This document shows, piece after piece, positions 10,009 through 50,974 of a stretch of 64,000 bases of DNA. This stretch comes from a virus: the IMG/VR virus record IMGVR_UViG_3300029106_000003, positions 1,317 to 65,316 of that record. One strand, written 5' to 3'. The notes below the pieces were generated by a model. The model made no database searches. It was given only the letters and a program-made list of their open reading frames with translations, and was not told where the DNA came from. The position numbers and the translations under genes were made by a program. Numbering within the stretch: the first letter of the stretch is position 1; every line of letters begins with the position of its first letter.

Positions 10009-13000
10009 TCACTTTCCTCCTTTCCCTTTTAATTCGGACAATTCTTTTTTCAATCGTTCTATATCTTCCATAAGGGCTTTAACCAGACGGGCGGTCTCCT
10101 GCGTTGCCCCGGCTATGGTGTTGATATAGTCGGGCGACAGGTAGTTCAGAGCCCCGTAACCGTCCCCCGTTTCGTAGGCCATCGATGGCAATACCTCTTT
10201 CACCTTTTGGTACAACAGCCCCGTATGGGCTTCCCCGTCCACACCGCCCTTGTTACGCTTCCGTGCTTTTTCGGTGTATCGGAAATCGCATACCCTGCCC
10301 ATCGCCAAGAGGCGGTCGGTATAACTTCGGGTATAGTCGAAATCTCGCTTCAAACGCATGTCCGAAGTCGTTAGAGCGGTGACCGAGCCTTGTGCCGAGA
10401 TATTGCCTTGCGACGATATATCCCCTCCGGCCGTGATGTTACCGTCCGATGTGATATACCCGTTCGATCTGAGATAGTTTGTGGCCAATATTCCGCCATT
10501 ATAGATAGTAACCCTCTTGCTACCGGTTTCCGCCACGACTCCTGAACAGTAAATTCTTTCAACCCCATTTATATCTCCGCTCATGGAAATGCTGCCTACA
10601 TCTGTCAGATTACCCGAAACGTCACCCGTACCGTCAAACGGATTTCCCCAAATCGTCCGGATATTTTTAAGCCTGTCGGCGGCGATGGAATCGTTATCCG
10701 TCAAGGCGACAGACGGGGTCACCACGGTCAGCTTGCTCACGCCGACTGCCGGCATGGGAGACAACGATATACTATCCACACAGTTCTCGCAAGTCCCGTT
10801 CAAAGCCCCGTATGTGTTATAGACGAATATGGAGCAGGTCTGGTAATCCGTCTTGGCCGAAACCCAAAAACACACGCGTCCCCCGTACAAGAACACCTTC
10901 ACGTCACCCAAATCGTCACCGAAATGCGTACCGGCCGTAGCCGTAAACTCGACATCGTTCGGGGCATAATTATACGCCTGTACGATCGTATTGATAATTC
11001 GTCGGCTATAATATCCATTTCCGATCAGATGCAACGTCAACATAGCCGCCTCGGCCTCTTCGACTTTCGTGCGAATCAACCACCCGTTTCCGGTGGCTGT
11101 CTCATACATGCCGCCCCTCTTATACAGGAAAGCCCCGTTGTCAAGTCCGTTCAACTTTTTCGCATTGTCCGATTCGACCGCACGTCCGACTGTCAGCCCC
11201 GTATATGTACCGCTCACGTTGTTTATCTCGGCCAGCGAATAGGTAGGCTTGTTCGGCTGCTGCACCCAATCGTACAGGGTTATGCCTTTGGTGACAACGA
11301 TATTACCACCCGTTTTGCTGATCGCCGTCACCACATTGCCTGTACCTATCGTAGATGCGCCGGCGTTGGCGAGTTTCCAAATCTCGTTGATGGTGTAGGC
11401 GTTGAAGGTATCGGTAAGGGTGGCGTTGTCGAATGCGCCGCCCAGATCGTCGAACCCATACACGAGCTTGATGAGCCCTCCTTCACCACCGCCACCCCCT
11501 TCCCCACGCCATACACCAAGAGCGGATATTCCACCCTGTGAATACACATTAAATTTCGAGTATATCGTATTTTCCAACTCTGTGTCGAATTTCCACATAT
11601 CGTTAATACGGGCAAATCCTTCCTGCATTTGTTTTACAGTCCGTTGATACGATTGTTGCAGGGAAGCCGTCATATCATTGATGGCAGAAATCAAGTCGAT
11701 ATTCTTATTGGCAGATGCAACCTCTTCTTTCAGTTCTTGCGTATTCCCTTTTATTAGGTTGTTCCCGATGGTAATAGTCTGTTCGAAAGGATAGTCGAGT
11801 TTGGTTGTAAGGCTTATAACACGAGTAACATATGAATATCCTGCGTTTATGTATTCGACTTTTCTTCCTATGGATAAATCAGGATTGTTTTCATCGAACA
11901 CCACAGGATTAGATGAAAACTGGTAGTTGTTTTGGTCGGAAGAAAGCCGTTCTATTTCTTCGTTCATAGCTGTTTCCAGCCGTATGTACGCCGAATCTGT
12001 ATATTCTTCCGGCATTTTGACGTTGAATAGGATAATATCGTCATTTTCCGACGGTATAAGTCCCGTAATAGCAGGGATAATATAGTTACCTTCTTCCTCT
12101 TTATATTTAATCTCGAAATCTCCTTTTTTGACTTCGAAGCTTATGCCATCATCACTCGTTATTGTTTTACTCTCATCATGGTATATAAGCTCAAATTCCA
12201 TACCTTGCAAAGCCCCCGATTGGAAATGTACCGAAGGTTCCTTATTTGGTATACGCATACCATTCGGATTTTTTTCTTCGTCATAAGGGGAATTGTCGAA
12301 GTTAAATTCCGGTATTTGAAAATACCATATCGCATATTGGTCGTATATAGGGTCTCCATTTTCATCTGTGCCTATCTGTATTTTATCATTCGTTTCCGAG
12401 TCTATACGCCACATAAGGCGGAATCTGACATCTGATATGGAGAGTTCCGATGAAGGGTATATATCATCGAACAGGAGGATTTTGCTAAATATCTCTCCCT
12501 GTTGAAGGTTTGGCCTTATATCTTTATATCCGTTCGGATATTTTTTAGGGTCAAGAGTCAGCCGTTTGTTGACCAAATTGTTGACATTAGCACCTTTGTA
12601 TTCCTGTACGATGTTTCGAGTTGACCCGAATGCGTAAAATCGGGTATAATACCCATCTTTTCCCTCCGTGACCGAAGGTGTATTGATGTTTTCACCAACT
12701 TCGAGAGAAACAACAGCTCCATGTTCGGATTTCGACAGATGAATAATCATGGAATCTTTCTCAACCCACCATTCTGTATCAAACGCAGATGCTATACTGT
12801 TCAAGGCAGACAATATGTCGATTGATTGGAAAGACAAAGAAGTGGAAGCGTTAAGAGAAGAATCTACGGCGTAAGTCCATGTATCTCCGGTTTCGTTCTC
12901 GATAGCCTTGCAAATAACACTCATGAAATTGGCCGGGTTATCGGTAAGAGACCAATCCGGCTCCCGATTCGTTATCTCGTTATTCTCATCGTAAGAATAC

Positions 13001-13302
13001 ATGAAAAAAGGCACTTTACCCCATGATATAAATTTCGAATGAAATTGTGGTTTGTATTGAAATTCGACCTCGTTCTTTTGTTTTGGATTATATGGCTCCA
13101 AAAGAGAATATTTCTCACCATCGAGTATAATATAAGCCCCTACCGGAATCTCTTCATTTTGGTCCGAGTTCCACGACAATTCTACATAATCGGATTTCAT
13201 CAATTCCTCTACATGAACACACTCTTCTGTTATAGGAACTGATAAAATAGTCTCTCCTTGTATGTTTTTAATGTCTATCATGATGGTTTCGTATATCTTC
13301 AT
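10009..13302 (-). CDS. Tail-tip (Tal-like) protein fused to a fibre with a C-terminal peptidase-S74 intramolecular chaperone domain
   Basis: N-terminus resembles the phage minor-structural/prophage tail endopeptidase N-region. Gly run (GGGGGEGG) mid-protein. C-terminus ...TSDMRLKRDF...GLLYQKVKEVLP...ALNYLS... is the S74 auto-cleaving chaperone pattern, followed by a coiled-coil. Confidence 0.75.
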   Translation of the reverse strand: MKIYETIMIDIKNIQGETILSVPITEECVHVEELMKSDYVELSWNSDQNEEIPVGAYIILDGEKYSLLEPYNPKQKNEVEFQYKPQFHSKFISWGKVPFFMYSYDENNEITNREPDWSLTDNPANFMSVICKAIENETGDTWTYAVDSSLNASTSLSFQSIDILSALNSIASAFDTEWWVEKDSMIIHLSKSEHGAVVSLEVGENINTPSVTEGKDGYYTRFYAFGSTRNIVQEYKGANVNNLVNKRLTLDPKKYPNGYKDIRPNLQQGEIFSKILLFDDIYPSSELSISDVRFRLMWRIDSETNDKIQIGTDENGDPIYDQYAIWYFQIPEFNFDNSPYDEEKNPNGMRIPNKEPSVHFQSGALQGMEFELIYHDESKTITSDDGISFEVKKGDFEIKYKEEEGNYIIPAITGLIPSENDDIILFNVKMPEEYTDSAYIRLETAMNEEIERLSSDQNNYQFSSNPVVFDENNPDLSIGRKVEYINAGYSYVTRVISLTTKLDYPFEQTITIGNNLIKGNTQELKEEVASANKNIDLISAINDMTASLQQSYQRTVKQMQEGFARINDMWKFDTELENTIYSKFNVYSQGGISALGVWRGEGGGGGEGGLIKLVYGFDDLGGAFDNATLTDTFNAYTINEIWKLANAGASTIGTGNVVTAISKTGGNIVVTKGITLYDWVQQPNKPTYSLAEINNVSGTYTGLTVGRAVESDNAKKLNGLDNGAFLYKRGGMYETATGNGWLIRTKVEEAEAAMLTLHLIGNGYYSRRIINTIVQAYNYAPNDVEFTATAGTHFGDDLGDVKVFLYGGRVCFWVSAKTDYQTCSIFVYNTYGALNGTCENCVDSISLSPMPAVGVSKLTVVTPSVALTDNDSIAADRLKNIRTIWGNPFDGTGDVSGNLTDVGSISMSGDINGVERIYCSGVVAETGSKRVTIYNGGILATNYLRSNGYITSDGNITAGGDISSQGNISAQGSVTALTTSDMRLKRDFDYTRSYTDRLLAMGRVCDFRYTEKARKRNKGGVDGEAHTGLLYQKVKEVLPSMAYETGDGYGALNYLSPDYINTIAGATQETARLVKALMEDIERLKKELSELKGKGGK

Positions 13303-13313
13303 ACGATTTCAGT

Positions 13314-13349
13314 CAAAGATAATAAAAGTGTATGAAAAACATGCACTTT
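13314..13349 (-). promoter_or_regulatory. Late-type promoter P1: 27-bp palindrome plus -7 box
   Basis: Minus strand AAAAGTGCATGTTTTTCATACACTTTT, 1 nt, then TATCTTTG; ATG of the Tal gene is 11 nt further. Confidence 0.55.
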
Positions 13350-13351
13350 TT

Positions 13352-14200: not shown

Positions 14201-17200
14201 CTATAAATCTTTAGTATTCCTATTGACTTGTGCTATATCGGATTTTATATCAATTAATAATTTCGTATATTTTGCAATGTCTTCTAAGTAGCTATTCGTA
14301 ATCACATGTTGATTAAGAATGTTATTTAGTATAGAATTGCTATTAGTTGATACAGATAAAAGAGAATTTAGAGAGATTACGGCTGAAATCATTTGATTTT
14401 TGATTTCTTCACCAGAAAGCTGCAACGCTGTAAACCGGCCGTTTAATTCCGTTGCTGTATCTTGTGACATGGTTTCAAAACCTCCGGCTTTCGACTTTTG
14501 TTCGGTGGTAGAACTTTCTCCCATGAGACTATCAGCCCAACCGAATTGAGCATCTATTTCTTGTTGAAGCTGTTCAGCCATGTTGTTGATGTAATCTTGT
14601 TCCCATTGAGAAAGCACGTTGTCGGCATAAAATTGTTGCAACTTAGTGCGTATTTCCTCCATTTTATTTGAGGATTTAATTGCTGCCTTAATGCTCTCTG
14701 TTACCATTTGTTGCATCATCTGCTTTACAACATCTTTTGCAGATTTAGCCCTATTCTCGCCAGAAGCCCATGCATCTGCATAAGCTTCTGCAAAGTTGTC
14801 AATAGCACTTTTTAGGTCTTCACCAAATATGACATTGATAGCTTTTTCTTTGTTATCAGAAATGAGATTGTTTATTTCGTCAATTTGATTTTCCCATTCT
14901 TTTATTCTGTCGCTATCTGTATTCTTTTTATCTTGTTCTTCTTTAATTTGATTTTGAATAAGTACTTTTTGTTGTTCTAGCAATTTATTTTGGTCTTCAA
15001 TCAAGCTGGAAGCACTCTTTCCGTAAGCAGTTTCAATGGACTTGCCTAACTTTTCATACGAACGGTCAAGTGTATCTACCTGATCTTGTAATTTCTGAAT
15101 CCGTTTTTCATTTTTTGCGTCGTGGATTTTTGCGATAGAGGAAGCAAGAGAGGAGACAAGACCGATGGCAGCACCAGCAGCAGAACCTATCGGTCCAAAT
15201 ATAGCACCTGCCTCTGCTCCTTGCATAGCTGAATTGAGGCCGTCCATAGCCACATTGATACCTTCGGCAATGCCTGACAGTGTATCAGATCCGAAAGCCT
15301 CTCCGAGATTTGAAAATGTGTCGGAAAGGAATTTGGCCACACTTAATACCTCACTCAATCCACTTCTTATTTCTTCAAGTCCATCTTGCAATTTTTTTGT
15401 ATTTGAACCGGCATCGAATACTTTTTTAAGACCATTAGCTAGTTTGTTAAACCCCGTTTCAGATTGATCTGCGGAATTACGGACATTATCTATACCTTTT
15501 CTAATTCGTTCTAATTCTTCGGGAGATTTACGCAATGTGTCGAAGGTCTCTTTTGTCATACCAAATTCAAGACCTTTGTTTTCGTCCCATTCGCCTGATT
15601 GCAAGAATTGGAATGCCCGTTCAGCTTCATTAGCAATGAGACGCATATCTGCAACTGTGTGTTGACGCATATCGTCAAACAATTTACTTATGGCAGACGT
15701 AGATTTATTCGCCTCTATATCCAAATCAGATAGTGCCCTTTTTGTTTCTTCGTCAATAGACTTCTGTTCCCATTCGTTTTTGCCTACCTTACGAGATTCG
15801 CCTTGCTCAATAATAGCATTACGCTTTTCATAATAGTTCCCGTAAGCGGCAAGATAATCGTTCATTGCGTTAATTTCATCATCGAGAATTTCTTTGGTCT
15901 GTTTATTCTTATTCTTTTCATTTAACCTATTTGCGGTATCAATATTTTCCTGTTGTTCAGTTGTTAGTCCATTCTCATTAAGCTTGGAGGGTTCAATCTT
16001 AGCTACTTTGTTTAACTCGGCCAGCTCTTTCTCTTTCTTTTTAATTTCTTTTTTCTGTTCTTCATAATAGTAGTTAATTTGCTTCAATTTCTTATCTTTA
16101 CCTTCTTCCCAGAGGGAGATTTCTTTCTCTTGATTTTTTTTACGAAGCTCAAGAAGTTCATCAACAAGTTTCTGCTCGGCCTCTTTTTGCTCTTTTGCTT
16201 GCTTATCTTCAGCCGCTTTATCAGATTTGGTTTTAGGCAGCTTTGCACGGAGTGCGTCAATTCGTGATTGTAACGCATTGTATTCCTTGCTTCCGCTTAC
16301 AGTTTCTCCCTGCTCTTTCTCTAATTTTGAGATTTGTGTTTTGACTTCATTGATTACTCTCAAATCTTTCTCACGTTCAAGTATAGTGTCTTGAAGCGAC
16401 TTGATATAAGCCTCTTGTTGATCCACTGCTTCTTTTGTTCCGCTGCCGTCTGCAAGGGCCTTTTTTAATGATGCAAGTGAGGTTTCAGCCTTCTTGATTT
16501 CTTCTTCAAGTTGGGAGATGGATTTACCTTCTGTTGTAAAAATATTTTCAGTAGGTGAATCAAATGAGGGTTCGGGAATGAAATATTTGTTTCTGTATTC
16601 TTCTAAATTTTTATTTCTTATTTCAGCTTGTCGCCTTATTTCAAATAGAAGTGTATTTGCACTTTCTCCCCATCCAGTAGATACATCATTAAAAATCCTT
16701 TGAATTTCTGTCGGTATATCTCGACCGCTATCCAGCCAGTTTAACCAATTTCGGTAGACTTTTAATCCAGACTCATCTCCATATTTTTTTGTAAATGCAT
16801 CATATACTTTTGTTAAGTTTTTTTCTCTGACGCTATTGTATATATCTTCTTCTTGTTTGGCAAAATTGGTATAATTTTGTGCGGCCATAGATTTACGTAT
16901 GGCTTTTTCTAATTTTTCATATTGTCCAGCAAGAGACCCTGTTTTATCAATTTCTTCATCAATGCCAGAAAGATACTTTGAATAGCCATTTACTATTTTT
17001 TCTTTTATAGCATACCATTCGTCAGACCATTTTTTAGCCTCCGTAAGTTGCCTATTAAGTTCCCTTAATGTGGACATTTCATTTAATGCAGCCACTTCGG
17101 TTTTACCAAATTCATCGTTCAGCCTTTCCTGTGCCTTTTCTGCTTCTGTTTGATAAGTGACTAATTTATAAATACCTAAACCTAGTGCTGTTACTGCCGC

Positions 17201-18232
17201 TGCTACTGCGACATATGGGTTGGCAAGTAAAGTCTTGTTGAGTAGGGATTGAGCTTTTTGTGTAAGCACCAGCCAACTATAATGTATTGCCTCTTTAGCT
17301 GTCAATGCAGTAATACCAGCAGCTTGAAGGTTATGTAATGCAGTAATAGCCATAAGCGCAGTTCTGTATGCTCCGTATGTACCGACCAATTCAATTAGTA
17401 TTTTTCCTACTTTTTCATAGTTTTCTATCAAATAAGAGACGCTGGATAATGCATCATTGATAATACCTTCATTCGCTTTGCCGATCTCGTTCAACATCAT
17501 CGAGAAACTATCTCCTATGTTAGAAATCTGTCCGGTAATGGTTTTGCTTTGTTCTTGCATTAAGTTAAAGAACATACCACCCTCGTTGGTAAGGTTCTGT
17601 ATGACTTTCTGAACCTCTGGAAACCCTATCATACCAGCTTCTACCATTCCTTTGATTTCACTTTCAGCTACTCCAAATTCTTTGGCAAGTTCTTTTATCA
17701 TTGGAATACCTCGTCCAGTGAATTGGTTTAGGTCCTGTGTATAAAGTCGACCTTGTGTCATAGTTGTACCATAGAGATATACTAAGTCTCCCAAAGGTTG
17801 TGAAAGTCCGGCTGCAATGTTCCCTAATCGTATAAGAGTCTCGTTAACATCTTCAGCAGAAGTACCGTAAGCCAGTAATTGACGAGCTCCATTGGCAACA
17901 CCTTGTAGATCGAATGGAGTTTTGGCGGCTGTTTCTGTGAGCTGAGCCATAAGGACGTTTGCCTTTTCACTACTTCCAAGCATAGTGGTAAAGGCGACCT
18001 CTAATTGTTGAAATTCACCTCTTACTTGTATAATATTTTGGATAAGTTCTTTTGCTGTAAAGCCAGCCCCAAAAGCTGCAGCTGCTTTCGTCATTTTGTT
18101 GAACATATCTTCTATGCCCAATCCATTTTTTTCTATTTCCTTAGAAGTATTGGTTACTCCGGTTTCTACTTCTCGTAGTTTACGAAGAAAATTAGAATTG
18201 TCGCCTGTTATATCAAAATGAAGTCCGGCCAT
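14201..18232 (-). CDS. Tail tape measure protein
   Basis: 1343 aa; N-terminal TP901-type core (TPFDLQGVANGARQLLAYG...TQDLNQFTGRGIPM); long coiled-coil/Lys-Glu-rich middle; hydrophobic Gly/Ala segments. Confidence 0.9.
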   Translation of the reverse strand: MAGLHFDITGDNSNFLRKLREVETGVTNTSKEIEKNGLGIEDMFNKMTKAAAAFGAGFTAKELIQNIIQVRGEFQQLEVAFTTMLGSSEKANVLMAQLTETAAKTPFDLQGVANGARQLLAYGTSAEDVNETLIRLGNIAAGLSQPLGDLVYLYGTTMTQGRLYTQDLNQFTGRGIPMIKELAKEFGVAESEIKGMVEAGMIGFPEVQKVIQNLTNEGGMFFNLMQEQSKTITGQISNIGDSFSMMLNEIGKANEGIINDALSSVSYLIENYEKVGKILIELVGTYGAYRTALMAITALHNLQAAGITALTAKEAIHYSWLVLTQKAQSLLNKTLLANPYVAVAAAVTALGLGIYKLVTYQTEAEKAQERLNDEFGKTEVAALNEMSTLRELNRQLTEAKKWSDEWYAIKEKIVNGYSKYLSGIDEEIDKTGSLAGQYEKLEKAIRKSMAAQNYTNFAKQEEDIYNSVREKNLTKVYDAFTKKYGDESGLKVYRNWLNWLDSGRDIPTEIQRIFNDVSTGWGESANTLLFEIRRQAEIRNKNLEEYRNKYFIPEPSFDSPTENIFTTEGKSISQLEEEIKKAETSLASLKKALADGSGTKEAVDQQEAYIKSLQDTILEREKDLRVINEVKTQISKLEKEQGETVSGSKEYNALQSRIDALRAKLPKTKSDKAAEDKQAKEQKEAEQKLVDELLELRKKNQEKEISLWEEGKDKKLKQINYYYEEQKKEIKKKEKELAELNKVAKIEPSKLNENGLTTEQQENIDTANRLNEKNKNKQTKEILDDEINAMNDYLAAYGNYYEKRNAIIEQGESRKVGKNEWEQKSIDEETKRALSDLDIEANKSTSAISKLFDDMRQHTVADMRLIANEAERAFQFLQSGEWDENKGLEFGMTKETFDTLRKSPEELERIRKGIDNVRNSADQSETGFNKLANGLKKVFDAGSNTKKLQDGLEEIRSGLSEVLSVAKFLSDTFSNLGEAFGSDTLSGIAEGINVAMDGLNSAMQGAEAGAIFGPIGSAAGAAIGLVSSLASSIAKIHDAKNEKRIQKLQDQVDTLDRSYEKLGKSIETAYGKSASSLIEDQNKLLEQQKVLIQNQIKEEQDKKNTDSDRIKEWENQIDEINNLISDNKEKAINVIFGEDLKSAIDNFAEAYADAWASGENRAKSAKDVVKQMMQQMVTESIKAAIKSSNKMEEIRTKLQQFYADNVLSQWEQDYINNMAEQLQQEIDAQFGWADSLMGESSTTEQKSKAGGFETMSQDTATELNGRFTALQLSGEEIKNQMISAVISLNSLLSVSTNSNSILNNILNQHVITNSYLEDIAKYTKLLIDIKSDIAQVNRNTKDL

Positions 18233-18277
18233 GAGTCTTTTCGATTAAAAGGGGTAGATGTAACATCACATCATTTG

Positions 18278-18313
18278 CAAATATACAAAAGTGTATGAAA
18301 TTCATATACTTTT
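18278..18313 (-). promoter_or_regulatory. Late-type promoter P2 (tape-measure block)
   Basis: Minus strand AAAAGTATATGAATTTCATACACTTTT, 1 nt, then TATATTTG; about 45-nt leader to ATG 18232. Confidence 0.6.
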
Positions 18314-18422
18314 GATAAAATAGAATAGAGTTAATAAAGTTTAACTAATGTGTGAGTATAAATATTTTAATAAATGATTATTGTATTATACTTTTGACGA
18401 AACAATCTAAACAGCATAAGAT

Positions 18423-28325: not shown

Positions 28326-28687
28326 TCCTCATCATCAGGCAATTCTTGCATCAGTTTCTCAAATGGATTGACAGTAACCTCCTGTTCCAGCCTCTCAACA
28401 TATCCTCTCTCTCGCATTTTGGTCTTACTAAGCCAAATGAGCATTGTGTTGTCTTGTTCTGTCAAAGCCTTTGAGAACATAACAGTTTCTAATTTATCTT
28501 TGAACGCTTCTTCTACTTCCTCCCATTGCTTCCTAAACTCTTCATCTTTCTCTTTCCACTTGTATGCAATGGAACGAGATATTCCGGCTGCCTCACACGC
28601 TTTCGTAACGTTAAGCAGTCTTGCATCAAGTGCATTCAGAAAAATCTCTTTCTTTTTCTTTACAGGAATCCTAAACTTCTGTCCCAT
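28322..28687 (-). CDS. terS: Terminase small subunit (HTH type)
   Basis: 121 aa; HTH ...VTKACEAAGISRSIAYKWKE...; ATGA overlap with terL. Confidence 0.65.
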   Translation of the reverse strand: MGQKFRIPVKKKKEIFLNALDARLLNVTKACEAAGISRSIAYKWKEKDEEFRKQWEEVEEAFKDKLETVMFSKALTEQDNTMLIWLSKTKMRERGYVERLEQEVTVNPFEKLMQELPDDEE

Positions 28688-29375
28688 CTTTATTTACCTC
28701 CAATACGTTATTTACTATTTCCAACATCTTACAAATGCTTAATGCCTGAGCCTTGATTTTATATTTCGCTTGGACTTTTGCACTGATTTCATTTAAATGG
28801 TGCATGGTTTCCATATCTACAAGAGTAAGATTTCCCAACTCTTTTTCCGAATAACACTCTAGCGTTTCCATGAGTTTGTCGAATGATGCTTTCTGCGTGT
28901 CTATGAACATCAGCGTTACAGGAACAATTTCGTTATTCGGCATTTCTACTGTGTAATTAATATCCTTTACACTTTCCAATACTTCGTTACTGATGTGTGC
29001 GTATTCTTTTAAGGCAACATCAGTTATTTCATCAAGTAGCTGTTTTAATACCTCCGCATCGTCTTGACCAACAATACTGTTGTGACTGAGTTGTGTCGCT
29101 AATAGCCAATCGTTGGAAGTGTTATTCTCATCAATATACATTACGTGAATAGAAGTAAGACCTGCCATCTTTGCTGCCTGTGTTCTATGATTACCACTGA
29201 CAACTGTATATGTACCATCATTATGCTTTACACAAAATGGAACAGATGAAAGCTGCCCATCTCTACGGATATTATTAACAAGTGCATTAAATGTGTCATT
29301 GCTCATAAAATGAGCATTCTTCTTGACAAATTTAATGTCAGAGAGTTGAACTTCCTCAATTTTAAATTTTTTCAT
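28671..29375 (-). CDS. ParB N-terminal (ParB/Srx nuclease-like) domain protein
   Basis: ...YTVVSGNHRTQAAKMAGL... ParB-box; ATG 29375 one nt after the upstream stop. Confidence 0.75.
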   Translation of the reverse strand: MKKFKIEEVQLSDIKFVKKNAHFMSNDTFNALVNNIRRDGQLSSVPFCVKHNDGTYTVVSGNHRTQAAKMAGLTSIHVMYIDENNTSNDWLLATQLSHNSIVGQDDAEVLKQLLDEITDVALKEYAHISNEVLESVKDINYTVEMPNNEIVPVTLMFIDTQKASFDKLMETLECYSEKELGNLTLVDMETMHHLNEISAKVQAKYKIKAQALSICKMLEIVNNVLEVNKDGTEV

Positions 29376-29376
29376 A

Positions 29377-31464
29377 TTACTCCTTTCTAGGTTCGTTACC
29401 ATATTTCTGTACAAATGCTTTTAAAATCTCATCTAAATTTCCACGAATACCTGAATCTTGAATATAGTGAAGTTTACCAACGCATCTTTCATGTAACTTG
29501 AATACTCCCCGATACTTCATACTTACGGGCTTATCAGTAAACACAGAAGTGGCAATTATACCACATTCATGCTTGTATCTTATATTCAATTCCTCTTTAA
29601 ATTCAGTTGAAAGCACACCTGTAATAAGTAATCTGCTTAGCTTTGGTATAGTATGGTCTATCACAAAATCTGACTTCATCCAAACTGCATCCATGCCGTA
29701 TTTGCTGACTTTTAAGAAATCAAACATACAAGCTCCAAATACGTAATTATCTAAGAACCATAAATAGCAGAATGGAGCCGAGCCTAATACTATACCTTTC
29801 TTCAAATATATCATACGTAGATAATCTATCTCTGACATAGAAGCACGCATAAAACGAAATTTGCTATTTTCAGAAATGGAATAATCATCTGGTAAACGTT
29901 TGTACTTTAATGGAGTAATAGCACGTTTATTAAAACTGCTATCACCAGTACTACTTACATTGGAATAAATATAAGTTCTCTGGTCTTTGAATACCTCTCT
30001 GCGTCCCATGAAACCATGTTGCGACAATGCCATGTAATTCACCTGCTCTTCATCTATCTCAGAATATTTTGTACGGATTCTTTCTTGCCAACCGAAATCA
30101 TTCAACAAGAAGCGTTGTAAAGCATTGCTTGTAGCTTTCATACCGGAATGAAACTCATTCTGATAAATCAAAATATCATTTTCATTGCAATTAAGTATAG
30201 CATCCGAAATATCAGCACAATACAGAACTTCAATGTTCTTTGATTTCAGATTATCAACGAGTTTCTGATAACGTTCTGTGTATTTCTTCTTGTAGTAATC
30301 TAAACGGGACACGAAGTCATCATATAGTGACTTATGGTAAATATCCTGTGAGTTCTTATGCTTTTTTATGGCATTGAAAAGATGAATAACAGCTACCATT
30401 TCGGAAGGATTGTCCGACTGTAAATCCATGAAACTATACTCGTCGTTGAAACGTAGCTCTTTTATCTCTCCCTTAATAGCTTTATACATAAGATAGATAA
30501 AATACTCTTTCGTATATACCTTTATCTCACGGTTAGTAAGCACTTGTTCTATATCCATGTAGTATGAGTTTACCACATGGGCGACATCAAATCTTGAAGC
30601 CTCTTTTTTGATGAAAGAAAGCATCCGGTTTGACTTCTTGAACATAGAGCCTACTACCGTAACATTATCCGAGTGTTCTGCCGCCCAAAGTAGCGGTTTA
30701 TGTCTTTGGGGAACTTTGGAATAGTCAATATGAAACACCTCAAGACACTTATCAATTGTGGAGAGTTGCTTATACTCTTCTATATTTTCATGCAGGTAGG
30801 CATACTCTACAAATGAATACATGAATTTGATTGTCTCCAATACTTTATCAAAGTTCCATGAACTGTTGAAGATTCTGAACTCTGCCGTGCCAATCTTGGC
30901 AATGGAACATAAATTGAGCCAATACCTGATATGTCCCCTGTCTGAACCATTGTTGAATACTTTTAGTAGGTTGTCGATATTATCAGCTTCTAGCACACGT
31001 TTCACCACATCATATGGAGGGCTTGGCACGAGGTATTTTGTTTCCCACCACTCGGCTATATCGAATATCCGCTTGATTGGATATGCTGTATAGTAGGAAA
31101 GGACAAACATACGCTTGATAACATTCAAATCCATATCTTTGATATACAGATGTGCGTCAAAGCCTTCATTCCACATGAGGTAACTTCCTGCATCTTTCAT
31201 TGTTTTGATGAAGCCTTTCAACTCCTGTAAGTCTTCCACACAATAATGGTATGGACGAGTGTTTATCTCGCCACCAAATTGACCGTGGTGTGTGACAGCC
31301 GAACCGTCCGAGTTATTCATCATGGTTAGCTTGTTGTCCGTCCATTTATAACCGACTGGAAGGGAAATGCATTGTTTGTCTCCATCGGCAAACTCCAATT
31401 CCATGCCAAACGTGCGGTTGGCAATGTAATCAATCCACGGCTTATCTATATTCATGTTCTGCAT
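29377..31464 (-). CDS. Large protein with an N-terminal amidoligase (Amidoligase_2, glutamine-synthetase-like) domain and ~450 aa of unknown function
   Basis: FGMELEF, GGEINTRP and GTAEFRIF motifs in the first ~230 aa; remainder unrecognised. Confidence 0.55.
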   Translation of the reverse strand: MQNMNIDKPWIDYIANRTFGMELEFADGDKQCISLPVGYKWTDNKLTMMNNSDGSAVTHHGQFGGEINTRPYHYCVEDLQELKGFIKTMKDAGSYLMWNEGFDAHLYIKDMDLNVIKRMFVLSYYTAYPIKRIFDIAEWWETKYLVPSPPYDVVKRVLEADNIDNLLKVFNNGSDRGHIRYWLNLCSIAKIGTAEFRIFNSSWNFDKVLETIKFMYSFVEYAYLHENIEEYKQLSTIDKCLEVFHIDYSKVPQRHKPLLWAAEHSDNVTVVGSMFKKSNRMLSFIKKEASRFDVAHVVNSYYMDIEQVLTNREIKVYTKEYFIYLMYKAIKGEIKELRFNDEYSFMDLQSDNPSEMVAVIHLFNAIKKHKNSQDIYHKSLYDDFVSRLDYYKKKYTERYQKLVDNLKSKNIEVLYCADISDAILNCNENDILIYQNEFHSGMKATSNALQRFLLNDFGWQERIRTKYSEIDEEQVNYMALSQHGFMGRREVFKDQRTYIYSNVSSTGDSSFNKRAITPLKYKRLPDDYSISENSKFRFMRASMSEIDYLRMIYLKKGIVLGSAPFCYLWFLDNYVFGACMFDFLKVSKYGMDAVWMKSDFVIDHTIPKLSRLLITGVLSTEFKEELNIRYKHECGIIATSVFTDKPVSMKYRGVFKLHERCVGKLHYIQDSGIRGNLDEILKAFVQKYGNEPRKE

Positions 31465-33279: not shown

Positions 33280-33426
33280 AAATTCAATCATTCTTCAAGC
33301 TACTTACAAGAACACTTATGCAATTCTTCGGCTTCTTTCAGTCGTGTCAGATAGCAATTTCTATCACCCCGTAAACTGCACAAGCTTTAATGTTCTTGCT
33401 TTTGCTTATCGCTACTATAAGGGTTG

Positions 33427-33496
33427 AGCGGAAACAGGGAATCGAACCCCACTCTTTGGTTGGAATGCCAACGCTCTGCCGATGAGCTATTTCCGC
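33427..33496 (-). tRNA. tRNA-like gene with glycine identity set and an apparent 8-nt anticodon loop (CAUUCCAA)
   Basis: Acceptor GCGGAAA/TTTCCGC, D arm GCTC-ATCGGCA-GAGC, T arm TGGGG-TTCGATT-CCCTG, discriminator T. The anticodon arm pairs only as TTGG/CCAA around CATTCCAA. Confidence 0.6.
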
Positions 33497-33574
33497 AATA
33501 TGGGCAGCCTGCAAACCGTTTATCAGAATTTCCACTGCCCTTCCTTGTACTTCGGTCGTTATTTCTTATCTCTG

Positions 33575-33647
33575 AGGTTGAAGTGGGATTCAAACCCACG
33601 AATAACGGTTTTGCAGACCGTTGCGTTAATCACTTCGCCATTCAACC
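33575..33647 (-). tRNA. tRNA-Cys(GCA)
   Basis: Acceptor GGTTGAA/TTCAACC, anticodon arm ACGGT-CTGCAAA-ACCGT, T arm GTGGG-TTTGAAT-CCCAC, discriminator U73. Confidence 0.85.
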
Positions 33648-33727: not shown

Positions 33728-34132
33728 TCAAAACAAACTCGCTTGTTCATAATTGGGCTCTTTCTTCTCAACAACTCCAAATTCTGTGATTTCAATACCA
33801 GTATTTTCTGTGATCCATTTTGCCAAAATATGGCGATGGCAGAAATCACCCGGTTTTTCGTAGCAACAAAGAGCAACGTCTTTTCCTCCGCTTAACATTT
33901 CAATTTGTTTCACGACTTGGTTCGCATCTTGGCTTGCCAATATTCTGTCGTAAAGTTTTAGGTATTCATCGTGGGAACAAGGTCCACTTACCATATAACG
34001 AGTCGGGCAAACATTCAGCATTTGTGGAATACCAGCTATAAATCTGGGTTTTCCGATTGCTACGCAAATCATATTAACTTCCGCCTCTTTCAGTTTTCGG
34101 ATATTACCGAAATACGATGTAAAAATCTTCAT
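33728..34132 (-). CDS. DUF488 family protein
   Basis: MKIFTSYFGN... and ...VALCCYEKPGDFCHRHILAKWI signature; ATG 34132. Confidence 0.7.
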   Translation of the reverse strand: MKIFTSYFGNIRKLKEAEVNMICVAIGKPRFIAGIPQMLNVCPTRYMVSGPCSHDEYLKLYDRILASQDANQVVKQIEMLSGGKDVALCCYEKPGDFCHRHILAKWITENTGIEITEFGVVEKKEPNYEQASLF

Positions 34133-34153: not shown

Positions 34154-34190
34154 TAAATATATAAAAAGTATATGAAATTCATGCACTTTT
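34154..34190 (-). promoter_or_regulatory. Late-type promoter P4 (DUF488-tRNA-enzyme cassette-terminase block)
   Basis: Minus strand AAAAGTGCATGAATTTCATATACTTTT, 2 nt, then TATATTTA. Confidence 0.55.
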
Positions 34191-37982: not shown

Positions 37983-38270
37983 TTAATCTCCACAATAACG
38001 CCCGCTTTGGTTTCTGTAATACTCTATTATACCTCTTTCCATTGCTGAGTCGAATACAATCGATTCGGGCTTTTGTGCGGGTCCCGACTTTTTCATTAAC
38101 CGGCGAGCCTCTTTTTCTGCCTTGCGGGCTTCCGCTTTCATCTTAAACCATGCGTTCCTCAAACAAGCACTGAACGACTGGCAGAACTCACGGCCGAGAA
38201 CCGAGATAGAGCGTTTATACATTGACCATGCCATTTTGAAGAGTTGCGATTTGTTGATTTTCGTTTTCAT
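37983..38270 (-). CDS. First leftward gene of the switch; basic hypothetical protein
   Basis: 95 aa Lys/Arg-rich; its -7 box TATCTTTA (38294-38301) overlaps operator O1. Confidence 0.55.
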   Translation of the reverse strand: MKTKINKSQLFKMAWSMYKRSISVLGREFCQSFSACLRNAWFKMKAEARKAEKEARRLMKKSGPAQKPESIVFDSAMERGIIEYYRNQSGRYCGD

Positions 38271-38293: not shown

Positions 38294-38382
38294 TAAAGAT
38301 ACAAGTTATATCTTGTATTTACAATAGTTTGAGCAAGATTTATCTTGTATTTAACTTTATTTATACAAGATATAGCTTGTAT
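38294..38382. promoter_or_regulatory. Divergent switch region with three 20-bp operators
   Basis: ATACAAG-N6-CTTGTAT at 38299-38318 and 38363-38382, and the degenerate copy gAGCAAG-N6-CTTGTAT at 38331-38350; centres are exactly 32 bp apart. Confidence 0.7.
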
Positions 38383-38428: not shown

Positions 38429-38692
38429 ATGAGAATAAGAGATATTATTGAGCAAAAAGGTATAACGACAAAAGAGTTAGCCGAAAGAATGGGAATTAGC
38501 CAAAGTGCATTGAACCAACATATATCAGGGAATCCTTCGATTAAAGTTCTTACTTCAATTGCTTCTAATTTAGGAGTTGATATATGGGAATTGTTTATAT
38601 CACCAGAAGAAGTACGCCCCAATAGCGATACTACTATATTGACGTGTCCTAAATGTGGAGCGAAGTTAAAGGTAATTGAGTCAAAAGATTAA
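38429..38692 (+). CDS. XRE-family HTH protein with a C-terminal zinc ribbon; candidate prophage repressor
   Basis: ITTKELAERMGISQSALNQHISG HTH; CPKCGAKL at the C-terminus; divergent from the early operon. Confidence 0.65.
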   Translation: MRIRDIIEQKGITTKELAERMGISQSALNQHISGNPSIKVLTSIASNLGVDIWELFISPEEVRPNSDTTILTCPKCGAKLKVIESKD

Positions 38693-39616: not shown

Positions 39617-39949
39617 TTACCACAAAGCAACCTTTCCGCCTATTCCCAAATCAAGGGTGGCCGTTGTAATTCCCAAAGCCTTAAAAACTTTGCTCATAGT
39701 AGGAAGTGTTATTATACACTTACCGCTTTCAAGTTTGGATATTTGCGACTTCTTTACACCTACTTTAGCCCCTAACTCTTCCTGTGTGAGGTTCTGTTTG
39801 AGCCTTTCTGCCTTGATAGCCTCTCCAATGTAATAAGCCTGCAAATCATCTTTGAGTTGAGCTTCCATAGCGTCCCTTTCGGGAGTGCCTTTTTCTCCCC
39901 AAACCTCATCTACTACCACGCTAAGTGGAGTTAAGTTCATCTTTGCCAT
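39617..39949 (-). CDS. higA: HigA-type XRE antitoxin
   Basis: C-terminal HTH LTQEELGAKVGVKKSQISKLESG; 2-nt spacing from the toxin gene. Confidence 0.75.
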   Translation of the reverse strand: MAKMNLTPLSVVVDEVWGEKGTPERDAMEAQLKDDLQAYYIGEAIKAERLKQNLTQEELGAKVGVKKSQISKLESGKCIITLPTMSKVFKALGITTATLDLGIGGKVALW

Positions 39950-39951
39950 AG

Positions 39952-40296
39952 CTATTTGTTTTTATCGTTGAAGTATTCTATTCTCAATTTCTCCGCCTTT
40001 TCTATCTCCTTTTTAGGCGTTTTCTGTGTCTTTTTCACTATCCCGTGAGTGGCTACTACCAAAGCCTCTATTTCCGTGTCCCAAAAAGCAAACAGGCGAT
40101 AACATACCCCGTTAAAGAGCGTCCGAAACTCCCATATATCGGAGTTCTCCAACTTCTTGAAGAGTTCCTTATCTATTTCCCCTCCCTCCACTTTAAGGAG
40201 ATTATAGGTTATTTTCTTTTGCGCCTTTTCTGGTAAGGAAGAAACAAACTCCCTTGCTGCGTCCATAAATGCTATTTTTATTCTTCGTCCGCTCAT
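39952..40296 (-). CDS. higB: HigB/Gp49-like RelE-superfamily toxin
   Basis: IWEFRTLFNGVCYRLFAFW...VVATHGIVKKTQKTPKKEIEKAE pattern; ATG 40296 (the TTG at 40320 overlaps the -7 box). Confidence 0.7.
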   Translation of the reverse strand: MSGRRIKIAFMDAAREFVSSLPEKAQKKITYNLLKVEGGEIDKELFKKLENSDIWEFRTLFNGVCYRLFAFWDTEIEALVVATHGIVKKTQKTPKKEIEKAEKLRIEYFNDKNK

Positions 40297-40317: not shown

Positions 40318-40355
40318 CAAAGATATACAAAAGTTTCCATAAAAGCAAACTTTTG
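40318..40355 (-). promoter_or_regulatory. higBA promoter with inverted-repeat operator
   Basis: Minus strand CAAAAGTTT-N10-AAACTTTTG, 2 nt, then TATCTTTG. Confidence 0.5.
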
Positions 40356-40486: not shown

Positions 40487-40786
40487 TCATATCGCCTTAA
40501 AATCCAATCGGCCTAAATTGTCATTTATAGACTTAATGATACTTTCCTGTATCAAGGTTCCGCATTGGGTTGTTAGTTGTATAAAGTGATCTGTATCATT
40601 ATCTGATACAATTCCGTACTTGTTCTTCCAGTTGCAAAAAGAGTTCTCTATATCTCGCAATCCTGCCAACATGATTAATAACTCCCTTGTCTGTCCACTG
40701 ATGACTGCGTTACGCATGGTATCGACGCTACGATGTTCGATTACTTCTACTGTCTGCTCATCTTGTTTTAATTCGGTTGTTTCCAT
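40487..40786 (-). CDS. Hypothetical protein
   Basis: ORF track. Confidence 0.55.
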   Translation of the reverse strand: METTELKQDEQTVEVIEHRSVDTMRNAVISGQTRELLIMLAGLRDIENSFCNWKNKYGIVSDNDTDHFIQLTTQCGTLIQESIIKSINDNLGRLDFKAI

Positions 40787-40992
40787 ATAAAAAAAGTTTA
40801 TTGTTTAACGATGTTAGGAATAGCGGGAATCCTCCCGGACACGTCCGCTACCGGTGGGATAGCTTACTTTCACAAGCGGCTGCCCCGTCTATAATTTAAC
40901 AAACATATAAAAGCACCCTATTAGGGTAGGGTAACCCGGAGCGGATAAACCGCCCCTTTGGATTTATAATAACTTTATGGTTATAGCTGATA

Positions 40993-41805: not shown

Positions 41806-42253
41806 ATCTGTAAGCATTTAAAGATATGTTATAGGCAAACATAAAAAGCGGCTGCCATATACGCTGCTTACAGATAATGGGTTCCACTCCACAGAGCGAA
41901 ATATCTACGTATAGGCAACCGCCAATATATAAAAGTATAGGCATAAAAAAAGCCCAACTTTCTATTGAGCAAATTAACCGCTTGCCCTGCGAAATGGTTT
42001 ACCATTATCATGTAAGCATTACAAAAGTATTGAATTTTACGAGGTAATGCTAATTATTGGGCACAAAATTAGAGCATGGAATCTTGAAAGTATATGAATT
42101 TCATACATAATTCAACATTATTAACCTTTGAGGGCTATTATACGATTTCCTAAATCAGTGAATCGTAAGGCAGTATTAAAAGATACGAAAAGTAAGCACA
42201 TATGTAAATATTGGTAAGTATCTTGGTATCTATTGAAATTCATTTTATCTGAA

Positions 42254-43168
42254 TCATAATAGAGCTAATGCTTGTGTTACAATCGGTGTTAGTTGATTTG
42301 CTGCTATTCCCGTAGCAATACCTTGTATAGCGTTCAATGCCAATTTTAAGGTTTTCTTACCCCAAGATGGTTTATTACACTCTTCTTTTATCGTATCAAT
42401 TGCCATTTTTAGGTCTGAATTATCTATATCACTTGCTTTTTCTACAAGCTGAGAGATTACACTTTGTAGTTTTTCTTTTTGATCTTGGTCTGATATATAT
42501 AATGTAAGATCACTGTCTGAAATATTTCCTGTATTGACATTACCATCTCCTGTATTAGCTACTACTGAATTAATATAATAATTATTCATAATATTACTTA
42601 TCACTTTTTGTTCTTCAATTTTCGAAAAATCAATACCTGCATCAATTTTTTCGTCTAAATCTAGAAAAAATGATAACAGCTTTGACTTAAATTTATCAAC
42701 AATACACACCAATGAAGACACTGAGAACTCCTGCCATACTTTTTCTACATTCCCAGAAACATATTTGTTTACTTCGGTATATGCCATTGATGGAGAATTA
42801 ATAGATACATTGCCAGTTTTTTGGCTACTGCCTATATTTTCTATTTCGTTTAGTGAATGAACAATGCACACATGACTCATGCAATCATTTATGATAGCAT
42901 TATCAAAAATACCTTGAGGAATTATGATGTTTTGATACATTCCCACAAATGGTTGTGAAACATTGGCCTTTACAATAGCATTGAGAATTCTATAATCTGG
43001 AAGGTTTTCTGCATCTGGATATCCATTTTGTTCGTTTCTTATCCACATTTCAAAGTCATTATTACCCAATTTGGATGCGACTATCTGAGCTTTCAATAAT
43101 ATACCTTTAATCGGCTTATCATCGCCTAAGTCTTGAATGATTTTGTTTATTATCTCTTTCATAAGCAT
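42254..43168 (-). CDS. AbiTii-like abortive-infection domain protein
   Basis: N-terminus ...IKGILLKAQIVASKLGNNDFEMWIRNEQNGYPD...LPDYR matches the AbiTii signature; 1-nt overlap with the upstream gene. Confidence 0.6.
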   Translation of the reverse strand: MLMKEIINKIIQDLGDDKPIKGILLKAQIVASKLGNNDFEMWIRNEQNGYPDAENLPDYRILNAIVKANVSQPFVGMYQNIIIPQGIFDNAIINDCMSHVCIVHSLNEIENIGSSQKTGNVSINSPSMAYTEVNKYVSGNVEKVWQEFSVSSLVCIVDKFKSKLLSFFLDLDEKIDAGIDFSKIEEQKVISNIMNNYYINSVVANTGDGNVNTGNISDSDLTLYISDQDQKEKLQSVISQLVEKASDIDNSDLKMAIDTIKEECNKPSWGKKTLKLALNAIQGIATGIAANQLTPIVTQALALL

Positions 43169-44232
43169 TATTTCATTCGAAAAATATTCATAGGAATAAC
43201 CTTCGGTTTACAGACAAACCAATTAATAAAATCAGCCTTATTAATGCGCATCACACTCATTAAATCCTCATCGGTATATCCTAATTCGTTTCGATACAAA
43301 TTTAGTGTTTCTTCCCACATCGTAGGATGTTCTACAGGAAGAGGTATTGGTTCAATTCTACTATATCCTTTTTTGGAAAAGTATATTTGCAAATTACGAT
43401 ACTGCTGATATGTAATAGCGTCCAAGTCCCTAGCCCTTCTAACTAAAGCATGCATAGATACTCGCCATTTTCTTTTGAGTATACCTAATATTTGTACATT
43501 CAAATTTTGCAACATTGGAAAAATTTCCTCCTCTGGCATTAAAAATTCTGAAGCAAATTCATCCGCTTGACGTTCTGCATCATCAGAAGAACAAGGCGGA
43601 TTTTCTAAATGCATCACCAAATGTCCTAACTCATGAGCCATTGAGAAGCGAATTCTGTCATTAGGCATTTGATTGTTAATAAACATTACTTTCTTATCGG
43701 AATCTGTTATTGTTGTTAATCCATCTATTTTATCGGTTCCAAAATCAAAACGAATAATAATAACACCGTTATTTTCAAGCAATGTTGATAAATTGGGAAC
43801 TGCACCATTGAAAACTTTTAGTTTATATCGTATATTACGAGCAATTTCTTTAGCTGACAAATTTTCATTTGGGATATAATTACCTAAAGTGTATTCTGGC
43901 AATTCAACAGCAGACATTAATTCATCAATGATCGCTTTAAAAATCTTTACTTTGGCAACAAAAGAATCTATTATTTTATTTGTAACAGTAAGTTTCTTTC
44001 TATAATAGAGATGCCCTAGTGGAGAAATCCCTTCACTACGCATAAAAAATGTTTCGGGAAAATCGTAGTATTTACACAATTTTTCCATTATATCTCTTGG
44101 TAGCTCTTGAAGTCCGTGCTCGGCTTTCGATAAAGACGATTGAGATATTCCTACAGCCTCAGCAACTTCTTTTTGCGTTTTTTGCCTTAACAATCGAACT
44201 GTTTCAAGTAATGAGAAATTTATATTATTCAT
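43168..44232 (-). CDS. XRE HTH fused to an ImmA/IrrE (M78) zinc metallopeptidase
   Basis: HTH KTQKEVAEAVGISQSSLSKAEHG; HEXXH as MAHELGHLVMH. Confidence 0.8.
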   Translation of the reverse strand: MNNINFSLLETVRLLRQKTQKEVAEAVGISQSSLSKAEHGLQELPRDIMEKLCKYYDFPETFFMRSEGISPLGHLYYRKKLTVTNKIIDSFVAKVKIFKAIIDELMSAVELPEYTLGNYIPNENLSAKEIARNIRYKLKVFNGAVPNLSTLLENNGVIIIRFDFGTDKIDGLTTITDSDKKVMFINNQMPNDRIRFSMAHELGHLVMHLENPPCSSDDAERQADEFASEFLMPEEEIFPMLQNLNVQILGILKRKWRVSMHALVRRARDLDAITYQQYRNLQIYFSKKGYSRIEPIPLPVEHPTMWEETLNLYRNELGYTDEDLMSVMRINKADFINWFVCKPKVIPMNIFRMK

Positions 44233-44834
44233 ACAGCCTCTTTATTGTGGTTCGTTTTCTTAAATCTGGGTTTCTGTGCAACAATTTCTTTGTTTTCACT
44301 TTCTATTTCTACAACATCTACTATTTGTTGTGTCGGAATAGAATATTTCCATAAAGTGGTTTGTCCTTTAATATATTGCAGACTTAGCGTATTTATATTT
44401 TCCCTAAATGTATCTAATGTATATACTATGGAAATGACATGGCATCCTAATTCTTGATTTCGAATTTTATCCTCCTGCTTAGTCCTATTTCGAGTGCTAT
44501 CTGCCAATTTTATGATAAAAACATAACCTTGATATTCAAAAAATAATCGTTCATTTCCAGATATATTTGAAGTAAAAACAAAATGTTCTGAGGTCATCTG
44601 AGCAGAAAGTTCATTTTTTATTGCATTATATATATCTTCATGAAGACAATGAGATATTACGCTCATCGAGTTGAGCCCTTCGCGAAATTTTTCCTGTGTT
44701 TTACTTAAACCTGTTGTAACTCCAATTCTTAAACATTCTTCAAATTTATCGGTCAATACGGATGCTTTAAATTTATCCGAATTGAATTCATGTTCAGCAG
44801 GAAACACTGAGCATTGTATAATTTCTTTTGTCAT
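44229..44834 (-). CDS. Hypothetical protein, first gene of the three-gene operon
   Basis: 201 aa; ATGA overlap with the HTH-M78 gene; TATATTTG -7 box at 44862-44869. Confidence 0.6.
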   Translation of the reverse strand: MTKEIIQCSVFPAEHEFNSDKFKASVLTDKFEECLRIGVTTGLSKTQEKFREGLNSMSVISHCLHEDIYNAIKNELSAQMTSEHFVFTSNISGNERLFFEYQGYVFIIKLADSTRNRTKQEDKIRNQELGCHVISIVYTLDTFRENINTLSLQYIKGQTTLWKYSIPTQQIVDVVEIESENKEIVAQKPRFKKTNHNKEAV

Positions 44835-50937: not shown

Positions 50938-50974
50938 CAAATATAATAAAAGTCGCGTAATTTATATCACTTTT
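50938..50974 (-). promoter_or_regulatory. Late-type promoter P5 (portal block)
   Basis: Minus strand AAAAGTGATATAAATTACGCGACTTTT (outer arms conserved, core diverged), 2 nt, then TATATTTG. Confidence 0.5.

Follow-up and report, generated by a model that had tools for sequence, protein, structure and literature searches.

The late operons of the phage analysed here are preceded by a conserved 27-bp AT-rich dyad that lies immediately upstream of a Bacteroidota-type −7 box, and each such site can be read as a composite late-promoter cassette. The window, by which we mean the whole 64,000-nucleotide stretch of DNA that was analysed, comes from an uncultured Bacteroidota-type siphovirus; its minus strand carries nearly all of its genes, and the five named dyads are read on that strand. 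Each cassette would consist of the dyad (A4GT-core-ACT4) and a −7 box 1-3 nt downstream, to which about one-third of distinct cases would add a third part, a hairpin with a GA(A/U)GNN hexaloop at the expected 5′ end of the transcript. In the reading that we tentatively prefer, and hold to be possible, the dyad is a site of positive late control: it would be the operator of a dimeric DNA-binding protein specific to the phage type, its promoter-distal half-site would lie where region 4 of the sigma factor normally reads the −33 element, and the bound protein, an activator, would stand in for the −33 contact and switch on the packaging, head and tail operons. The features of the window are given below, where type A denotes the dyads with the core of this phage, RYATGAAWTTCATRY.

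13324..13350, minus strand: type A dyad of site 1 (AAAAGTGCATGTTTTTCATACACTTTT), ahead of the Tal/fibre gene 10009-13302, whose true start is probably at 13281
13314..13321, minus strand: −7 box TATCTTTG, 2 nt past dyad 1
13289..13306, minus strand: 5′ leader hairpin TCGTAT-GAAGAT-ATACGA of site 1
18287..18313, minus strand: type A dyad of site 2, ahead of the tape measure gene 14201-18232
18278..18285, minus strand: −7 box TATATTTG, 1 nt past dyad 2
18257..18272, minus strand: 5′ leader hairpin GATGT-GATGTT-ACATC of site 2, with a compensatory variant CCGTG..CACGG in L167
18307-18314, plus strand: divergent full −7 box TACTTTTG, made of the left arm of dyad 2 plus flank and facing gene 18423-19583
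25669..25695, minus strand: type A dyad of site 3 with one arm mismatch, ahead of the head genes 24802-25512 and the major capsid gene 23048-24358
25658..25665, minus strand: −7 box TATATTTG, 3 nt past dyad 3
25634..25651, minus strand: 5′ leader hairpin GCGTAT-GAAGAT-GTACGC of site 3
25530..25566, minus strand: intrinsic-terminator-like hairpin with T-run at the end of the 145-nt head leader, ~18 nt ahead of the start codon
34164..34190, minus strand: type A dyad of site 4, ahead of DUF488 (33728-34132), two tRNAs, GNAT/amidoligase genes, the ParB-like gene and TerL
34154..34161, minus strand: −7 box variant TATATTTA, 2 nt past dyad 4
50948..50974, minus strand: site 5, with the arms kept and a non-palindromic core GATATAAATTACGCG, ahead of the portal gene 49498-50898
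50938..50945, minus strand: −7 box TATATTTG, 2 nt past site 5
42086..42110, minus strand: degenerate type A dyad (the orphan), 14 nt upstream of the −7-like TAATTTTG (42064-42071)

The arms AAAAGT-N15-ACTTTT, with at most one mismatch, had six matches in the window, where 0.44 would be expected, and none of 100 shuffles gave six matches. The full 27-mer consensus (AAAAGTRYATGAAWTTCATRYACTTTT, at most three mismatches) was matched four times against 0.00 expected. The original prediction, in which this palindrome abuts a −7 box on the minus strand at five sites, proved to be real, with coordinates accurate to within 1 nt. The gaps from dyad to box at sites 1-5 are 2, 1, 3, 2 and 2 nt on the minus strand, and the boxes read, in the same order, TATCTTTG, TATATTTG, TATATTTG, TATATTTA and TATATTTG; the Bacteroidota −7 consensus TAnnTTTG is exact at four of the five, site 4 having the variant. 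Because TAnnTTT[GA] occurs with a frequency of only 0.00125 per position, five adjacencies at five sites are not the work of chance, which would give them with a probability of ~3e-12. Leaders of 21-145 nt follow the boxes, and all five named sites stand ahead of packaging or structural genes. Profile matches to the genes after the dyads comprise a tail fibre-like 1097-aa protein, tape measure, major capsid, TerL, portal, DUF488 and Bro-N/ANT, while two tRNAs follow DUF488 in the site 4 block; these protein family checks agree with the downstream genes named beforehand (Tal/fibre, tape measure, head, DUF488-to-terminase, portal). The degenerate orphan copy that had been listed is also a real member of the family, with four mismatches, and the portal site does have a diverged core and intact outer arms, GATATAAATTACGCG not being self-complementary. 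The sixth arm match, at 55705-55731, has no −7 box after it, lies (by eye) inside a possible short minus-strand ORF, and is most likely due to chance.

A motif scan of related phages, which had been proposed together with the original prediction, found the exact degenerate 27-mer in 91 IMG/VR stretches, most of them from close relatives of the window phage. Each of the 15 distinct type A sites collected without requiring a box had TAnnTTT[GA] within 17 nt (the background is 2% for 0-5 nt), and no dyad among these 15 lacked a promoter box, as one at an operon end would. The exact 27-mer had no match in GTDB genomes, and a prophage origin was rejected on this ground. Megablast with 22 kb of the window returned no near-identical phage record, and the nearest isolates by capsid are Cellulophaga phages, with 33% identity. 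What flanks the 27-mer varies, with five or more unrelated sequences on its left at the head site, and it is carried in different surroundings by a separate phage group (L004, L027, L061 and L091; tape measure 32-45% identical), and likewise by L011, in surroundings unlike those of the window. In L011 the dyad lies beside a uracil-DNA glycosylase gene and an apparent tRNA-like sequence (inferred from ORF translation), possibly at a junction with host DNA. When only the arms and the box were specified and the core could be any sequence, more than 113 viral stretches were retrieved; many of them belong to relatives of the window phage, with portal identities from 30 to 99%. The arms and the spacing are kept at orthologous gene positions in relatives down to ~33% protein identity, which are the first head gene (down to 33% identity), the portal, the fibre gene and the Bro-N gene.

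The core is specific to the lineage and usually self-complementary, and one phage type has one core across its four or five sites. The type B core, GGCRY-W5-RYGYC, is found at all sites of a well-sampled group, ahead of portal, head, DUF488, Tal and Bro-N genes. The portal site of the window has a third, non-palindromic core, which is identical in contigs that are otherwise type B, and the portal block g64-g73 is 73-99% identical to contigs with type B dyads elsewhere; these identities and the shared foreign core indicate that the portal module was exchanged together with its promoter. Across all phages N15 is the commonest arm spacing, and palindromic N10, N13, N14, N16 and N20 families also occur; given these families, one universal arm spacing was rejected and the spacing is regarded as clade-specific. 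Other dyad families set against −7-like boxes were seen in L394, L395, L408, L421, L450 and L460, and in L316, L327, L328, L361 and L364. One of these IMG/VR families reads AAAAGTTTGG-N3-5-CCAAACTTTT and is followed by TATCTTTG or TATATTTG; in another, AAAGTGGCGC-N5-GCGCCACTTT precedes TAnnnTTGC and is accompanied on the opposite side by a second dyad, ACTATCA-N-TGATAGT.

The spacing between dyad and box falls into two classes. Among 31 distinct type A sites the gap was 1-4 nt in 25, 13-16 nt in six and 5-12 nt in none, and the shift between the classes corresponds to one 13-bp half-site. In both classes the centre of a half-site is located 20-23 nt upstream of the box, which is the usual place of the −33 TTTG; it is the distal half at gaps of 1-4 nt and the proximal half at gaps of 13-16 nt. 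The palindrome had been said to occupy the −33 space, and this half-site centred on the −33 slot in both spacing classes bears the statement out. The 27-bp footprint spans about −14 to −42, and the dyad is centred ~16 bp before the box begins. It had also been pointed out that the five sites have no canonical −33 TTTG. Indeed, TTTG 19-21 nt upstream of the box was found at none of the five, but this is nothing special to them, since about five of about six other predicted promoters of the window also do without it (one has TTTG, by eye); the strict TTTG plus box pattern gave two matches in the window, which is the chance level.

The composition of the dyads was used to compare a terminator with a protein-binding site. 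The predicted RNA hairpins have energies of −5.4 to −10.2 kcal/mol, A:U arms included, and fewer than three G-C pairs; the terminator scan does not call the dyads, and does call GC-rich hairpins such as 26736-26713. Site 5, with its non-self-complementary core, cannot fold. At dyad positions 7/21 the combinations are G-C 6, A.C 6, G.T 6 and A-T 3, which is near independence, and positions 8/20 are likewise without covariation. The mismatches in the dyads (G.U 41, A.C 38) have no strand bias, and therefore neither strand is favoured. The arms are A/T tracts, as in bidirectional terminators, and the generic dyad pattern also matches ordinary terminators when run on bacterial genomes, while in other phages it picks up dyads that differ in length. 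An intrinsic bidirectional terminator does not fit the sites, since the stems are GC-poor, the genes upstream of site 2 are only divergent, which leaves it without a co-directional upstream transcript, and site 5 is unpaired. Because covariation is absent, A.C is as frequent as G.U, the hairpins are weak and GC-rich terminators occur elsewhere in the window, a sequence-specific dimeric DNA-binding factor would explain the dyad better than a plain terminator; a secondary insulating role of the dyad may exist beside it. The earlier proposal of a dimeric regulator that replaces the −33 contact thus stood as far as the site is concerned, which is coupled to promoters, conserved, better explained by a dimeric factor and placed with a half-site on −33, but it gained no protein of a known regulator family among the ~85 of 97 proteins scanned.

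The search for the regulator was based on PHROG and Pfam scans, which covered about 85 of the 97 called proteins of the window. No sigma factor, Q, Lpa, RinA, ArpU-like or other known late activator was found among these ~85 of 97 proteins with PHROGs or Pfam; the cognate activator may belong to a new family. The HTH protein g53 (38429-38692, plus strand) has 87 aa with a zinc ribbon, its gene faces that of a basic 95-aa protein (37983-38270, minus strand), and ATACAAG-N6-CTTGTAT occurs three times between the two (38299-38318, 38334-38350 and 38363-38382). The divergent pair and the three operators form a lambda-like three-operator switch. As a binder of the dyad g53 was rejected, because its own three operators are unrelated to the 27-mer. 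A Fic/Doc-like gene comes after g53. The g55 HTH, which pairs with a HigB-like toxin (HigB/HigA-like pair, 39952-40296 and 39617-39949), was set aside as a binder, having its own dyad AAAAGTTT-N10-AAACTTTT at 40329-40354. The promoter of this pair (40318-40354), in which the dyad lies 3 nt ahead of TATCTTTG, is the only canonical TTTG-N20 promoter on the gene strand. A third HTH is fused to an M78 peptidase and lies beside AbiTii in a module that relatives lack; this module, 42171-45030, comprises AbiTii (42254-43168), the HTH-M78 peptidase (43168-44232) and a 201-aa ORF; L093 and L097 lack it, although the surrounding sequence is 98% identical in them.

Other candidates were sought among genes that accompany the dyads. 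In the window, L011 and L061, three different genome contexts, type A dyads are accompanied by the module g52-g57. Within it, g57 (40487-40786), with 93-100% conservation where type A dyads occur, is a predicted acidic three-helix bundle with no significant PDB match (best E = 0.7) and was not retained, nor was g52, for which the model was of low confidence (pTM 0.32) and no PDB sequence match was obtained. The genes g72/g73, upstream of the portal site, had no family match and are absent from L133. Bro-N/Ant was rejected as the determinant of the core type, its identity not following the core (61% to a type B phage, 38% to another type A phage). The immunity-like module g51-g62 is absent at the syntenic place in type B relatives, and a sample of type B early genes, from L464, yielded a single weak match in the early region of the window and no type B regulator, so that either region, the g51-g62 module or the window early region, could encode the type A factor.

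The leaders were also examined. A 5-6 bp stem with a GA(A/U)GNN hexaloop, beginning 5-9 nt past the box, was found in 31 of 97 distinct dyad promoters, as compared with 42 of 3776 other boxes. The loops include GAAGAU, GAUGUU and GAAGUA, the stems have compensatory changes, and the predicted transcripts, including those of window sites 1-3, would carry the hairpin at their 5′ end; in type B portal leaders a GA(A/U)GNN hairpin is instead located ~10 nt ahead of the start codon. This hairpin may stabilise the mRNA, bind a protein or act as a signal in translation. The head leader (25513-25657, minus strand, 145 nt) contains a strong hairpin followed by T8 at 25530-25566, which recurs with changed stem sequences in aligned type A and type B relatives and in L101. 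Terminators occur in type B portal leaders as well. None was found in the leaders of the other four window sites, and a crude scan gave no enrichment of leader terminators (4 of 74 dyad promoters vs 63 of 1500 controls). Rfam returned only tRNAs for the window, with no match for the head leader, the orphan region or the small-RNA region of L027.

The wide-gap dyads (13-16 nt) sit in immunity-like regions ahead of short non-coding RNA units. In L027 such a unit is ~80 nt long and has a terminator (1706-1790, z = −5.6), and L011 has a comparable unit at about 1205-1290. The orphan dyad of the window is followed by ~220 nt of structured non-coding sequence (41844-42063, minus strand, z = −4.2) and then by the Ant promoter, and this sequence may be a small RNA controlling the anti-repressor. 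No other promoter of L027 has a type A dyad, and one other hairpin-associated promoter there follows an ordinary GC-rich terminator. Because the wide-gap sites precede short non-coding RNA units and L027 is without other type A promoters, the 27-mer is not a mark of late genes in every phage that carries it. The suggestion that the five sites define the late regulon was thus too simple: the portal site has an imported core, and both the orphan and the relative group place the dyad upstream of promoters of non-coding RNAs.

These data were weighed between several readings. We infer that a protein binds the dyad, that it is encoded by the phage and that it activates, and late genes of tailed phages are as a rule under positive control. 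On the other side, the tape-measure promoter of L167 keeps its −7 box and leader hairpin where the dyad is gone, so the core promoter may work unaided; also weighing against positive control is the portal site, which presumably works with a foreign, non-palindromic core. A somewhat unlikely reading makes the dyad the operator of a repressor that would occlude the −33 region and spacer of intrinsically strong late promoters relying on the −7 box only; it would possibly be tied to the immunity-like module and, at 13-16 nt, govern small-RNA promoters. The persistence of box and hairpin in L167 is consistent with this reading, as are the consensus −7 boxes and the footprint, which covers the −33 slot in both spacing classes and, at about −14 to −42, has the classic position of a repressor. 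So are the association of type A dyads with g52-g57 in the window, L011 and L061, the lack of the module at the syntenic place in type B, and the content of the window, which has a three-operator switch, toxin-antitoxin genes and Ant, with no integrase found. However, type B relatives bear dyads at the same positions without the immunity-like module at the syntenic place, the HTH of the switch has different operators (ATACAAG-N6-CTTGTAT, three times), and no candidate repressor could be linked to the dyad; the general prevalence of positive late control in tailed phages also speaks against repression. An antiterminator resembling lambda Q, loaded on the DNA at the dyad, had been proposed as well; polymerase modified there would read through the head-leader terminator and later stops. 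In lambda, the Q / PR′-tR′ system joins a DNA element inside the promoter to a short terminated leader ahead of the late genes, and the head site of the window, but only this site, resembles it in both respects. The recurrence of the 25530-25566 terminator in types A and B and in L101, the terminator in type B portal leaders and the conserved hairpin at the predicted 5′ end of the transcript agree with this idea. In contrast to lambda, four of the five sites are without a leader terminator and there is no pause-inducing repeat, that is, no −7-like pause element in the initially transcribed regions (by eye). The scanned proteins included no Q homologue, the crude scan gave no terminator enrichment, and read-through in L027 and L011 would go antisense into convergent genes. 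That proposal gains some support from the promoter-proximal terminator, which only the head leader has, and we hold the idea to be quite improbable.

A reading that needs no dedicated protein compares the cassettes with the PeSL (promoter-early stem-loop) cassettes of T4-like phages, which are conserved composite promoter-terminator elements mediating exchange (PMC2839356, PMC4122927). The hairpin would insulate transcription units, its T-tract entering the −7 box, and the copies would be homogenised by recombination or gene conversion while lineages drift with compensatory changes. PeSLs and the window cassettes are alike in having a stem-loop straight upstream of a promoter, in many near-identical copies per genome, and in lying at the borders of variable modules as crossover points between unrelated DNA, here the junction inside a dyad in L192 (25698/42087). 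Many different cores adjoin −7 boxes in relatives, promoters 41836-41843 and 40900-40907 of the window also adjoin a GC-rich hairpin with a T-run, the same pattern retrieves ordinary bacterial terminators, and the order of modules differs between types, with the compared blocks beginning at dyads. However, PeSLs are early sigma-70 promoters of myoviruses and are read as terminators, whereas the window cassettes precede late operons of a siphovirus, and the window dyad, with its half-site on the −33 slot, has an AT-rich weak stem of fewer than three G-C pairs and a type-specific core without covariation in which A.C mismatches are common. Site 2 has no co-directional transcript to stop, site 5 is unable to fold, the dyad would be redundant in L027 and L011, where it comes after one or two strong terminators, and the type A set holds no dyad away from a promoter box. 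We hold the PeSL-like reading to be unlikely. Very improbable is the reading in which a plasmid-type prophage would use the dyads as dispersed centromere- or KorB-like sites for its ParB-like protein (28671-29402), nearby promoters being affected secondarily. The presence of a ParB-N-like protein and of toxin-antitoxin and Doc/Fic genes, the lack of a detected integrase in 64 kb and the lack of GTDB matches to the exact 27-mer are compatible with it. However, this protein is 91-92% identical in type B phages despite their different core, its ParB_N match is under the Pfam cut-off (25.7 vs 26.3 bits), no ParA was found, and centromeres would not be expected to keep a strict 1-4 nt gap to the −7 box.

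Whichever factor acts there, the dyads are also places of recombination. In L192 (99% nucleotide identity) window position 25698 is joined to 42087 with the junction inside the dyad; the flank of the orphan site is fused to the head promoter, and the orphan is the crossover partner of site 3. The type B order is DUF488...TerL, g73, g72, dyad, Bro-N, portal...g64, dyad, head genes, while in the window the terminase block has been relocated, with the accessory region on one side of it and the head block on the other. In this respect the PeSL cassettes of T4-like phages are the nearest published parallel. The blocks start at dyads in the compared type A and type B regions, and the dyad cassettes probably serve, passively, as homology patches for module exchange. 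Another join, of window positions 13813 and 20623 across the imperfect direct repeat GTCTTTATTNATTTCTA, was seen in L192 (1448-1463) and L122 (3872-3887); it drops the tape measure and the plus-strand cassette, and reflects either a real deletion or an error of assembly.

Several further observations concern the window. A two-gene cassette on the plus strand (18423-20074), which encodes a protein with an HSDR_N nuclease-type domain and a 164-aa ORF, lies between the tail gene and the tape measure, and the divergent box TACTTTTG (18307-18314) is placed 108 nt ahead of it. There are three tRNA genes (33426-33496, 33574-33647 and 20805-20876), and for one tRNA the anticodon was left unassigned by ARAGORN, with an Rfam tRNA score of 47 bits nonetheless. 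Because the tRNA-Gly overlaps the 5′ end of ORF 20071-20841, this ORF probably begins further in. None of the scanned proteins of the window proved to be an integrase, although the window has a ParB-like gene, two toxin-antitoxin-like pairs and a switch of the repressor type.

The preferred reading, an activator bound at the dyad in place of the −33 contact, has counterparts in known systems. The T4 MotA box (about −30), the PhoB pho box and the lambda CII site are bound by activators that replace the −35 contact. Like the window dyad, these sites occupy the −35/−33 position of a promoter with a good downstream element, whereas they are direct repeats or single boxes of known proteins and the window site is a perfect dyad of a putative one. 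The late promoters of phage P1 reportedly contain a 9-bp inverted repeat centred near −22, in work said to be that of Lehnherr and colleagues from 1991/92. They are similar to those of the window in forming a late family with a good −10-type element, no −35 and a conserved inverted repeat directly upstream of the box, and in our data, too, the dyad stands at a fixed spacing (1-3 nt at the five sites, 1-4 nt in 25 type A sites) before several late operons. The activator of P1 late promoters is Lpa, the general role of which is described (PMC8198154). The window differs from P1 in that no Lpa homologue was found, the dyad has 27 bp, the promoters follow the Bacteroidota −7/−33 grammar, and the sign of control is a prediction. 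No literature on late-promoter dyads of Bacteroides phages or on late control in Bacteroidota siphoviruses was found. A more far-reaching view, to which we give a low probability, is that the dyad, the −7 box and the GAAG-loop hairpin make up a new late-expression system of Bacteroidota siphoviruses, in which a swappable factor at the −33 slot would work together with an RNA hairpin-binding partner in antitermination or mRNA protection, and the cassettes would be portable joints, the regulatory identity moving with the modules.

These data describe a clade of metagenome-derived phages with one common, easily recognised late-promoter grammar, by which late operons could be predicted in uncultured phages. 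The 27-bp element could be used as a bait for fishing out the regulator, and the cassettes could be built into switchable promoters of phage origin for Bacteroides. Regulation is linked with module exchange by the type-specific cores and the crossover within the dyad, which suggest how structural, packaging and accessory blocks reshuffle in these phages.
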